DNA of 32,000 nt, taken from NCBI GenBank assembly GCA_005191425.1, contig SUPR01000022.1, forward strand, positions 1 to 32,000. The letters are read 5' to 3'. The notes below the pieces were generated by a model. That model did no database searches and was not told the DNA's origin. It was given only the letters and a program-made list of their open reading frames with translations. This DNA comes from Candidatus Helarchaeota ASGARD archaeon Hel_GB_B (GTDB taxonomy: Archaea; Asgardarchaeota; Lokiarchaeia; Helarchaeales; HEL-GB-B). Position numbers and translations under genes: made by a program. Shown piece after piece: positions 10,274-14,179 of this stretch (its first letter is position 1; each line of letters begins with the position of its first letter).

Positions 10274-11452
10274 TTATTTCATTATTTTAGTATCTCTACC
10301 CATCCCTATGGAGACAATATTATCGGATGTAACTTCATAGTCGCTAGGTGTTTCATGAGTAATATCTAAATTGACACCTTTTATTGCCTCAGAACGTTCT
10401 ATTCCTAATTTTTCAGGGGTAATACGATTGGTACCAGGATATTTCCATTCAAAAACTCCAGATTTGAAGACAGACTTAGGGATTTTTTTAGGTTCCTTCG
10501 ACCCAAGAATTTCCACGTTTAAGCTATCGATAGGCATTGGGATACCATCGTCCCATTGTCGTTCAATTGATGCATGCCATATTTCAGGATGTTCGTCTTG
10601 CATCCATTTTACTCCAATATCTTCGATCCCTTTAATTGAAAAACAATGTGACTGAAAAAGACCCATTATTCGCAATTGATAATCACGACGTTTCATCATA
10701 CTCATCATCTGTAAAGTACTGGACCAAGGGATCATTGCTGCATAAAAATCAGGTAATTTGTAAATGCGTTCCGTATTTACCATATCATACATAAGTCCCA
10801 TAGCATCATAATTACTTAATTCACATATGATATTTATGGCACAAGAAAGCCAAACTATTGTAGAATGATAGGGAGACGACGACCATTGAGGAGTCCGCTC
10901 ATTCCTAACATCTTTTAAGATATCCATGCAAGCATACGCACATTTTGTAAGATTTTTAGTCCGTTTAGGAATCTCGCGTAGTTTATAACCCAGTTTCATA
11001 TGTCGCCTGTCTAGAAGTTCATCGTCCTCTTTAACACCAGCAAACCAAAAATCAGCAGGTAATCCGTTCTCCATATGACAATTAATAATGGTGAAAATTT
11101 TTTGAGACATGTCATCTACCAAAATAAATGAACTGTCAATACTTTCGCCATGTAATAACTTCATTGCACCTTGTTGAAGGTCGGATCTTGTAAGAATAGC
11201 AGGGGGAAATATAGTATAAGTTATAACTTTTTCTGGTTCCTTTATTTTACCATCAATTAATTCTTTTGAAGTCATTATGCTTTCAGTCATCCTAACCCGC
11301 ATAATCTCTTCAATTATCTCCCTTAAGCTTCTAGTCGCTTTATTCCAAGTTTCCCAGCCAATTTCTTGGTGCATTCTCCAAACATGTCTTGCAATTGGTA
11401 AATATTTTTTTGTTCTTAAAGAATCATCAATCTCGCCATAAGTATGAAGCAT
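10274..11452 (-). CDS. Hypothetical soluble protein (392 aa), function unknown
   Basis: Long ORF with globular composition, ATG preceded by SD GAGGTA, flanked by long AT-rich intergenic regions. No motif recognised. Confidence 0.85.
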   Translation of the reverse strand: MLHTYGEIDDSLRTKKYLPIARHVWRMHQEIGWETWNKATRSLREIIEEIMRVRMTESIMTSKELIDGKIKEPEKVITYTIFPPAILTRSDLQQGAMKLLHGESIDSSFILVDDMSQKIFTIINCHMENGLPADFWFAGVKEDDELLDRRHMKLGYKLREIPKRTKNLTKCAYACMDILKDVRNERTPQWSSSPYHSTIVWLSCAINIICELSNYDAMGLMYDMVNTERIYKLPDFYAAMIPWSSTLQMMSMMKRRDYQLRIMGLFQSHCFSIKGIEDIGVKWMQDEHPEIWHASIERQWDDGIPMPIDSLNVEILGSKEPKKIPKSVFKSGVFEWKYPGTNRITPEKLGIERSEAIKGVNLDITHETPSDYEVTSDNIVSIGMGRDTKIMK

Positions 11453-11844
11453 AAAATTTACCTCGATTAGTCATTATACTTTCTTTCAATAATTTACAAC
11501 TTATATTATTTTTAAAATCTATGTTTAAATATAAATAATTAAGCAATTCTTGATAATTAAATTATATTAAACCATTAATTAATGAAATATAAATTTAATC
11601 ATGATAAATAACTGAAACTAAGTTAACAAATCTCAAAAATTTTATTTTTTTAATTTTATAAAAATGAACTTTAAATATCTCAGTTTAAAAAATTGAAAAG
11701 GACGATTCTATATAAAAATTCGGTGGTTGAATATAGGATATAAAAAACAATAAAAGAAAAAGGAATTAAATTAAAGTTTTTTAAAAAGTGGTCGGTCCAT
11801 TGATTATTTTTTAGTTTTATATAGAAGTTAGGAATGATTTATGA

Positions 11845-12378
11845 CTAAATTATTTTGTGGATACCGGCTCTTTCCAGTCCAATGAATAATAAATAACCAA
11901 GTAAGTTCATAGAGATTAGAGACCCAGTAAAAATCCCGAGATATGTCAACCAGAACGGCATGTTAAGCAGAAACGGCAAATAAGTCCCGACAATAAAAGT
12001 ATTAATGAGGTTCATTAATAGAATAATTAATTGGATATAGATATGCCTTTTTTTGCCGGTCAAATTTTTAATTTTATTAAAGAGATAATAGCCCAATGAA
12101 CCTGCAAGTAAATTAGCTAGAGAACCAAAAATAATATCAATCAGTCCGAGACCACCAATTATATTAGCCAAGATACACCCTATTGTTATTCCAATAGTGC
12201 CAGGATAACCGAAGAAGAAAACAGTGGTAAATAGTGCATCAGCGACCCTAACTTGAGGAATATCCCAAGCGATAGGGATTAAAATTACTAGAACAACATA
12301 AAGAGCACTAATTATAGCAATTAATGATATATAAATAGATGTATTTTTATTATTTTTTGACAATTTTTTTTCATTCAT
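11845..12378 (-). CDS. queT: QueT-family (COG4708) queuosine/7-deazaguanine precursor transporter, ECF S-component-like
   Basis: ALYVVL...IAW...QVRVADAL......G..GITIGC.LAN..G.LG.IDIIFGSLA signature of the QueT family. About 5 TM. SD GAGGTG 8 nt before ATG. Confidence 0.85.
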   Translation of the reverse strand: MNEKKLSKNNKNTSIYISLIAIISALYVVLVILIPIAWDIPQVRVADALFTTVFFFGYPGTIGITIGCILANIIGGLGLIDIIFGSLANLLAGSLGYYLFNKIKNLTGKKRHIYIQLIILLMNLINTFIVGTYLPFLLNMPFWLTYLGIFTGSLISMNLLGYLLFIGLERAGIHKII

Positions 12379-12386
12379 TAATATTA

Positions 12387-12465
12387 CACCTCGAAACCCG
12401 GGGTTTATTGATTAATGTGGCGGAACGCGGTTTGAGGCGTACCCACCCGCCACGAAGTCAATAAT
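12387..12465 (-). ncRNA. Candidate cis-regulatory structured 5' leader (putative translational riboswitch) of queT
   Basis: Core 12417-12453 is 26/37 G+C in AT-rich intergenic DNA. Stems: GUGGCGG/CCGCCAC, ACGC/GCGU and UUAUUGA/UCAAUAA. The loop CCUCAAAC is complementary to GUUU(C)GAGG covering the SD. Confidence 0.62.
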
Positions 12466-12483
12466 TTCTACCTTAAGAATTCT

Positions 12484-12498
12484 TATATAAATTTTTTC
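12484..12498 (-). promoter_or_regulatory. Archaeal BRE/TATA promoter of queT
   Basis: Minus strand GAAAAAA-TTTATATA. With canonical spacing the start site falls near 12461-12467, the 5' edge of the structured leader. Confidence 0.5.
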
Positions 12499-12619: not shown

Positions 12620-14179
12620 GTGGTGAAAATAAAATATATAAATAATAAAAAGTTAAAAAGAAATATAATTGAATATAGAGAATACCAGGATTCGATTAGC
12701 GATATCTGCTTAGAGAAAAATACATTGGTCATATTACCGACTGCATTAGGAAAAACAATTATAGCGATTTTAACTGCAGTTAAATTATTGGACAAAGATG
12801 AGAAAATAAAAATTTTAATGCTTGCACCAACAAGACCTTTAGTTGTCCAGCATTTTAATACATTTAAAAATTTATTAAATTATAATAACAAGGATTTTAC
12901 CATATTGACGGGAAAAATTTTGCCCAAAAAAAGGCTTATGGCATGGAATTCTGCTAAATTTATATTTGCTACACCACAAGTAATAAGAAACGACTTACAG
13001 AACAAAAGATATAATTTAAAAGATATTGGACTTATTATTTTCGATGAGGCGCATCACGCAAGAAAAAACTATGCATATAATTATATTGCTTCGGAATATA
13101 TTAAAGGATATGAGAAAACGCGAATCTTAGGTTTAACGGCATCTCCAGGAAAAGATGAAGAAAGTATCAATGAAATCTGTGAAAATTTATTTATTGAAGC
13201 AATCCAATTTCGCTCGGAATACGATGACGATGTCAAAGATTATATTACGCCAATAACACTTTTTTGGCACAGATTAGAACTACCTGAAGAATATAATTTG
13301 ATTTTAAAAATACTAAGAGATATGGTAGAAGAGAATATACTTAAATTAAAAAGACAGGGTCTATTGATAATTAAATCTACAAAAATAATAACTAAAAAAG
13401 ATATATTAGAACTGGGTAAAAAATTAAGAGTAGAATTAAATAGGGCAACAAGGAGAAAAAAGGGATATCTTTATAATGCAATCGTTATTCAATCTGCTTT
13501 ATTGTCGTTAATGCACGGAATTGAATTAATAGAGACGCAAGGACTATTACCATTTTGTAATTTTCTTAGAAAGATTGAGAAAGATGCATTACAAGGCAAA
13601 TCAAAATATTCTAAATTAATAGTAGACCATTTAAAATTTGAAAAATTAACCTATTATTGTGAGTTTTATAGGCACATACCAAATCCTAAACTTGAGAAAT
13701 TAGCGGTACTTATAAAACAAGAATTGCAAAAAAATGCAAATTCAAAAATAATTGTCTTTAGCCAATATAGAGATACAGTAATACGAATCCAAGAATATTT
13801 AAAGACAATAGATAATGTCAAGGCAATTAAATTTGTCGGACAAACTTCTAAAGAAAATGACCCAGGACTTAAACAAGATGAACAAGCCAGAATAATTGAG
13901 GATTTTAAAGGAGATAAATATAATGTATTAATAGCGACATGTGTAGCGGAAGAGGGACTAGATATTCCAGCAGTAGATAGAGTAATTTTTTTTGAGCCAA
14001 TTCCAAGTGAAATAAGATATATTCAACGAAAAGGTAGGACAAGTCGACACCATATTGGTCGAGTGGACATACTTCTAAATAAAAATACTATAGATGAAGC
14101 ATATTTTGGGGCAGCACTCTCTCGCGAGAAAAAGATGAAAAAAATTATTAAAAAATTAAACAAGAAACTAGAAAAATAA
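12620..14179 (+). CDS. hef: Hef/FANCM/Mph1-like SF2 DEAH helicase lacking the C-terminal ERCC4 nuclease domain
   Basis: REYQ, LPTALGKT, LAPTRPLV.QH, ATPQ, FDEAH, LGLTASPG, KFVGQ, EEGLDIP, IQRKGRT. The ORF ends at 519 aa after the helicase C-terminal helix, with tandem TAA TAA. Confidence 0.9.
   Translation: MVKIKYINNKKLKRNIIEYREYQDSISDICLEKNTLVILPTALGKTIIAILTAVKLLDKDEKIKILMLAPTRPLVVQHFNTFKNLLNYNNKDFTILTGKILPKKRLMAWNSAKFIFATPQVIRNDLQNKRYNLKDIGLIIFDEAHHARKNYAYNYIASEYIKGYEKTRILGLTASPGKDEESINEICENLFIEAIQFRSEYDDDVKDYITPITLFWHRLELPEEYNLILKILRDMVEENILKLKRQGLLIIKSTKIITKKDILELGKKLRVELNRATRRKKGYLYNAIVIQSALLSLMHGIELIETQGLLPFCNFLRKIEKDALQGKSKYSKLIVDHLKFEKLTYYCEFYRHIPNPKLEKLAVLIKQELQKNANSKIIVFSQYRDTVIRIQEYLKTIDNVKAIKFVGQTSKENDPGLKQDEQARIIEDFKGDKYNVLIATCVAEEGLDIPAVDRVIFFEPIPSEIRYIQRKGRTSRHHIGRVDILLNKNTIDEAYFGAALSREKKMKKIIKKLNKKLEK

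Follow-up and report, generated by a model that had tools for sequence, protein, structure and literature searches.

What controls the queT gene of a Helarchaeota archaeon, and is the short RNA ahead of its start codon a riboswitch of a known kind, a riboswitch of a new kind, or a regulatory element of another sort? The question comes from the window analysed here, a stretch of 32,000 nucleotides from Candidatus Helarchaeota archaeon Hel_GB_B, in which the initial annotation had proposed a preQ0/preQ1-like translational riboswitch on the minus strand.

The candidate regulated gene (11845..12378, minus strand, 177 aa) matches the Pfam family PF06177 at E 3.4e-29, which confirms that the gene under the supposed control is queT; its product, QueT, we take to be the S-component of an ECF-type 7-deazaguanine importer. 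A divergent gene at 12620-14179 on the plus strand (519 aa), encoding a DEAD/Helicase_C helicase with an RNA_helicase_helical domain, has an AT-rich intergenic region of 240 bp in common with queT. On the other side, the spacer 11500-11700 just downstream of queT is extremely AT-rich (10-15 % G+C), and the next reading frame (10274-11452, minus strand, 392 aa) gave no Pfam match.

The queT leader and its promoter

The minus-strand letters 12498-12376 that the annotation had quoted are identical to those of the contig, every coordinate and pairing that it listed is present in the sequence, and its figure for the G+C content of the P1-to-P1 core, 26/37, was reproduced by hand counting, with AT-rich surroundings (18-24 % G+C in the spacer DNA around the core). 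Read 5' to 3' on the minus strand, the leader has as its main stem P1, formed by GUGGCGG (12447..12453) and CCGCCAC (12417..12423), of which the family keeps the core GCGG with co-varying outer pairs, and CCGC in 56/57 unbiased hits. Directly 3' of the first strand of P1 lies an invariant junction G-U-G (12444..12446), followed by the remaining internal loop (12424..12443), which carries the anti-Shine-Dalgarno (anti-SD) sequence CCUC (12437-12434), its extension AAACC (12433-12429) and, before the second strand of P1, the invariant G12426 and U12424. After P1 come the A-rich linker AUUAAUCAAUAAA (12404..12416), ending in the invariant A-N-A-A-A, and the block CCCCGGG (12397..12403), of which CCC and GG are invariant in the family and the last G is free. 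The Shine-Dalgarno (SD) sequence GAGGUG (12387..12392) forms the 3' strand of the pseudoknot, pairing with the loop CCUC, and the start codon AUG (12378-12376) stands 8 nt after it.

Folding energies give a divided picture: the 66-nt core reaches -21.6 kcal/mol against -13.75 +/- 2.76 in shuffles (z -2.84, 1/200), and the 106-nt whole leader is unexceptional against shuffles, with z -0.42, so that thermodynamics alone would be weak evidence. The window copy is of the Hermod/Hel subtype, which is without the extra GUGA and has CGNGYU ahead of P1. Its SD helix has a core of no more than 4 bp, CCUC/GAGG, beyond which the pairing goes on with a bulge; by RNAduplex its loop and tail form an interrupted duplex of 15 bp at -19.9 kcal/mol, and its local hairpins score -5.9 and -3.6.

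A TATA-like box, TTTATATA, is located at 12484..12491 on the minus strand, 41 nt upstream of GCGG; across the family such octamers cluster 32-38 nt upstream of the same point. From this spacing transcripts should start at P1 or just ahead of it, which agrees with the suggestion of the annotation that the TATA box places the start near the 5' edge of the leader. For the window copy we predict a start near 12461 +/- 3, about 8 nt before P1, which would give queT a 5' UTR of roughly 83 nt.

Occurrence of the motif in archaeal genomes

Within the same order, Helarchaeales, three other genomes possess an orthologous queT, 44-69 % identical to the window QueT at the protein level, and all three carry the motif ahead of it; more distant QueT-like genes of a neighbouring family (~30 % identity) stand without the motif. 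A covariance model (R1) built on the four same-order leaders found a single copy in every genome of the order with this queT (4/7) and nothing in the remaining three, where this queT is absent. In a sample of 151 Asgard genomes R1 gave convincing matches in four further families, namely Hermod-, Odin-, Hod- and Atabey-archaeia (in one family alone 17/19 genomes), and QueT lay directly downstream in 28/28 of the Asgard matches.

The motif extends outside the Asgard archaea. A scan of a species-representative genome collection with a pattern of the invariant blocks returned 119 matches, in 78 of which QueT is the next gene, with 7 more QueT genes having unusual starts; those with QueT come mostly from Bathyarchaeia, and the rest is mostly high-GC bacterial noise. 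An earlier, too GC-rich version of this pattern gave only chance matches in high-GC bacteria and was discarded. A second model (R2), made of Bathyarchaeia-type leaders only and containing no Helarchaeales or Hermodarchaeia sequence, found one copy in 28/151 Thermoproteota genomes, with QueT downstream in 28/28, and recovered the window leader at 38 bits (E 1.4e-9). Among Nitrososphaeria R2 matched 17/151 genomes, with credible matches before QueT in 15/17, and the two other matches precede a gene for a QueE-like radical-SAM protein, which in one of them (L207) is followed by queC. The motif was also found before queT-queC. Genomes carry a single copy, with the sole exception of G340, which has two.

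This recurrence of the same motif before orthologous queT in two archaeal phyla is the decisive evidence beyond chance. Being common to Asgardarchaeota and Thermoproteota, the family is either very old or has been exchanged together with queT.

Several records ask for a comment of their own. Three loci with bacterial or other labels (L185, Deferrimicrobium; L210, Krumholzibacteriaceae; L212, Methanocella) carry the archaeal motif with QueT. L185 is identical to a genome belonging to the same order as the window; all three are probably mislabelled or misbinned, and L185 and L210 look like archaeal contigs. An apparent occurrence in Halobacteriota was dismissed, as the 'Methanocella' MAG behind it (L212, G186) sits in the GTDB phylum of Bathyarchaeia and thus gives no evidence for a third phylum. 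At four Nitrososphaeria loci (L218, L294, L361, L365) the QueT frame opens 80-200 nt after the SD-like GGGAGG, which might point to a short ORF ahead of that frame or to another type of expression platform.

Co-varying helices and the invariant core

P1, as drawn in the annotation, is supported across the family. It is a stem of 6-7 bp, composed of the core GCGG/CCGC and two outer pairs, with two-sided changes at three pairs; the first outer pair is standard in 85/85 sequences and occurs in 6 pair types, the second is standard in 69/85. The pseudoknot between loop and SD, by which the SD could be buried according to the same annotation, is upheld as well, since the helix of loop and tail co-varies across the family. 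When each loop is matched with its own tail, the longest Watson-Crick helix has a mean of 5.78 bp, against 4.93 +/- 0.09 bp for swapped partners (maximum 5.25 in 300 swaps), and at least 12 compensated variants of this helix were found, among them CCUCGCA/UGCGAGG, CCUCUCA/UGAGAGG, UUCGCA/UGCGAA, CACCUCC/GGAGGUG, CCACC/GGUGG and GUCUC/GAGAC. In a formal count of P1 and pseudoknot on the Asgard alignment (A3), 91.1 % of cells are paired compared with 79.4 % in shuffles; covariation scores 0.216 where shuffles give 0.082, 0/500 shuffles attain the former value, and all slid registers score <=0.052. A MAFFT alignment of all subtypes (A4), in which the subtypes are offset by 4 nt, was left out of the counts.

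A third helix, the hairpin P2 (GUGGG/CCCAC), has two-sided changes at 4/5 pairs in leaders of the Bathyarchaeia type (A5) and at 5/5 pairs in the combined alignment of 61 sequences (A6). Because the anti-SD includes the 3' strand of P2, formation of P2 precludes the SD helix and vice versa, an arrangement of the kind that makes a switch. In every helix the G-U pairs are compatible with the queT-sense strand only.

Other pairings did not hold as family features. The optional outer stem of the annotation (12464-12458 with 12411-12405) is confined to Helarchaeales and, given a start near 12461, would be mostly untranscribed. The inner hairpin ACGC/GCGU (12440-12437 with 12428-12425) proved specific to the window sequence, the leader from the same genus being without it, and the alternative hairpin AAACC-CCG-GGUUU was likewise seen in the window sequence only. 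The longer form of the loop-tail pairing, CCUC-AAAC(C) with GGUUU-C-GAGG (12437-12429 with 12398-12389), is present in the window sequence, and so is the proposed second pseudoknot of GGGU with ACCC (12444-12441 with 12404-12401); the GGG:CCC core of the latter is invariant, so it gives no covariation, and the pair flanking it is standard in 11/26 relatives. Three further candidates of our own were not adopted: P2' (GGG/CCC, one register over) has no covariation, deviates by mismatches alone and was rejected; P1b (CGGGUG/CACCCG) is 95 % pairable with no two-sided change and was kept as a possible alternative conformer only; and a lengthening of the pseudoknot by CCCG:CGGG is at most tentative, as its flanking pair is standard in 64/104 with uncompensated changes and the GG is absent in two relatives.

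Between these helices lies a set of bases that hardly varies. In the hits found by covariance model the junction G-U-G has G in 56/56, U in 56/56 and G in 54/56, and before the 3' strand of P1 a G at -3 and a U at -1 were each found in 57/57. The blocks A-N-AAA and CCC are both present in 56/57 hits; they belong to the search anchor, so that the per-position count of 56/56 for A-N-AAA arises by construction. Of the G's after CCC the first is kept in 53/56, the second in 54/56 and the third in only 36/56, and the linker varies from 8 to 17 nt across the family. The invariant bases (GUG, G..U, A-N-AAA-N-CCC-GG) are mostly unpaired, as in aptamer cores. Such a core gives no covariation from which a candidate pocket or a partner of CCC-GG could be read.

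Taken with the association to queT, queE and queC, the covariation bears out the central idea of the annotation as far as computation can: the leader is structured and conserved, can sequester the SD and accompanies genes of 7-deazaguanine metabolism. We have very little doubt that it is a real conserved regulatory RNA. It also has what is generally expected of a riboswitch, being a structured 5' UTR element linked to a single pathway, whose helices co-vary and whose alternative folds exclude one another. One may object that SD:anti-SD pairing by itself can throttle translation and that the weak 4-bp SD core of the window sequence could melt with temperature, in which case the structure would act independently of any ligand, as a constitutive translational attenuator, an mRNA-stability element or an RNA thermometer. 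Such elements have no need of about 15 invariant unpaired bases and a compensated competing hairpin; the hosts, judged by taxon labels only, appear to range from mesophiles to thermophiles, and an association so strictly limited to one pathway points to a signal from that pathway, which makes a ligand-independent role, in our estimation, very improbable.

Relation to preQ1 riboswitches, candidate mechanism and ligand

In bacteria, riboswitches of classes preQ1-I, -II and -III control queT genes, and all three classes are bacterial (PMC11625349); a 2024 review of the preQ1 riboswitch family never mentions archaea. The annotation could not place the leader in classes I-III, and the comparison with Rfam models, of the cmsearch type asked for there, agrees with this, with no match at E<=10. 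Against the leader of the window, one from Bathyarchaeia and 19 from Asgard archaea, the preQ1-I model (RF00522) gave no hit at E<=10, nor did it match any part of the whole window at its gathering score, and neither preQ1-II (RF01054) nor preQ1-III (RF02680) had a covariance-model match at E<=10 among the leaders searched. Across all families of Rfam 15, 20 leaders from six lineages were likewise without a match at E<=10, and the window too had none. Nor did a literature search of incomplete coverage turn up a paper on the motif or on any archaeal queT leader.

In its general plan the leader resembles preQ1-I. There an A-rich tail comes after P1 and folds back to pair with the P1 loop, giving an H-type pseudoknot; part or all of the SD lies in the second helix, and queT together with que biosynthesis genes is controlled (PMC11625349). 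In the archaeal family, too, the linker ends in A-N-AAA and the tail:loop helix co-varies. It is nevertheless 65-75 nt long compared with ~34 nt in preQ1-I, its loop of 14-24 nt carries a hairpin of its own, and it is an archaeal family as opposed to a bacterial one. In preQ1-I the 3' strand of P1 comes directly after UC or AC, the C of which forms a pair with the ligand (PMC11625349). Among our hits CCGC is preceded by U in 57/57, and a UC would be obtained only with the first C of CCGC left unpaired, both partners of that pair being invariant. With preQ1-II (the COG4708/queT motif) the leader has in common a position upstream of queT, control (in the archaeal case proposed) at the level of translation only, a whole SD within the pseudoknot helix and a hairpin embedded where several helices meet (PMC11625349), and its SD does pair with the loop anti-SD upstream of queT; yet the P1-P4 HLout layout and the U-A-U triple floor of class II have no recognisable counterpart in it, and class II is confined to Bacillota. 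PreQ1-III also stands upstream of queT and has a hairpin-loop anti-SD that docks dynamically on a downstream SD (PMC11602147), but it is ~100 nt long and has a distance of over 40 A between SD and pocket, whereas the archaeal SD helix abuts the conserved core, and it is known from Ruminococcaceae and metagenomes only. The archaeal leader thus shares single features with preQ1-I, -II and -III but does not qualify as a member of any of them.

A 2017 survey names TPP and fluoride riboswitches as the only classes common in archaea (PMC5473149), and with so few classes known one may ask if the same RNA could be read by a protein, either an RNA-binding regulator or an enzyme of the pathway such as a TGT paralogue, which would stabilise the pseudoknot and repress translation; the invariant single-stranded GUG and AAA-CCC-GG blocks could be its site. 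We regard such a reader as unlikely. The element is small, 5'-terminal and H-type-like with an A-rich linker, as metabolite aptamers are, and it is kept across two phyla with very different proteomes; in the loci that we looked at, unsystematically, no conserved neighbouring regulator gene was noted.

The reading that we favour, and consider probable though well short of settled, is that the leader is a candidate translational OFF riboswitch of a new, undescribed and archaea-specific class, responding to preQ0 or preQ1 by sequestration of the SD. Binding itself, the compound bound, the direction of the switch (OFF) and the position of the transcription start are what we infer here. The transcript would start a few nt before P1, whose loop carries the anti-SD, and would continue 3' of P1 with the A-rich linker, the invariant CCC-GG block and the SD. 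A 7-deazaguanine base, likeliest preQ0 and possibly preQ1, would bind a pocket of invariant junction bases around P1, and the invariant GUG / G..U / AAA-CCC-GG would make this pocket a new one. In the bound state the H-type pseudoknot of loop and tail would be stabilised and the SD buried, so that QueT synthesis, and with it the import of precursor, would drop. In the ligand-free state local hairpins would hold the anti-SD and leave the SD open, this part being played by P2 in the Bathyarchaeia type and by ACGC/GCGU together with the tail hairpin in the window sequence.

We see an even chance that the class is the first to be exclusively archaeal and provides a fourth, independent fold for sensing 7-deazaguanines, tuned to preQ0, the archaeosine precursor. 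If validated, it would mean that archaea evolved metabolite-sensing RNAs of their own; if true, it would also give a much-studied family of ligands a further small aptamer fold, a new one, and make SD-dependent translational control directly testable in Asgard archaea, Bathyarchaeia and ammonia-oxidising archaea.

A 7-deazaguanine as ligand is suggested by the exclusive association of the motif with queT, queE and queC, and preQ0 is favoured as the common product of those genes. In the host genome, 93.7 % complete, neither QueD (PF01242) nor a full-length QueC was found, the latter being represented by partial N-terminal PP-loop matches only. De novo synthesis of preQ0 thus appears to be missing, import through QueT is the likely supply of precursor, and the host probably depends on such import or salvage. 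This marks QueT as a candidate regulated 7-deazaguanine importer in lineages apparently unable to make preQ0.

A riboswitch of a new class could also sense something else, namely queuine, archaeosine base, guanine, another purine or a signal of tRNA modification status. The U before the 3' strand of P1, unlike the C of preQ1-I, would fit such a ligand, and so would the queuosine-type Tgt(34) encoded in 7/7 Helarchaeales genomes; the motif, however, stands also before queE, with queC next where this was checked, and before queT-queC, whose common product is preQ0, and for this reason we think another ligand improbable and keep preQ0 as the first candidate. With Tgt(34) present, preQ1 and queuine stay among the conceivable ligands. 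The host encodes both Tgt(34) (TIGR00430, 441 bits, cut-off 307) and the archaeosine enzyme TgtA (483 bits), with loci at G000:C150:43825-44916 (L317:1438-2616:-) and G000:C111 (L318:1465-3099:+). The match to Tgt(34) is above the cut-off in all 7 genomes of the order, which makes the enzyme a lineage trait, and Helarchaeales may make or salvage queuosine, unusual as this would be for archaea.
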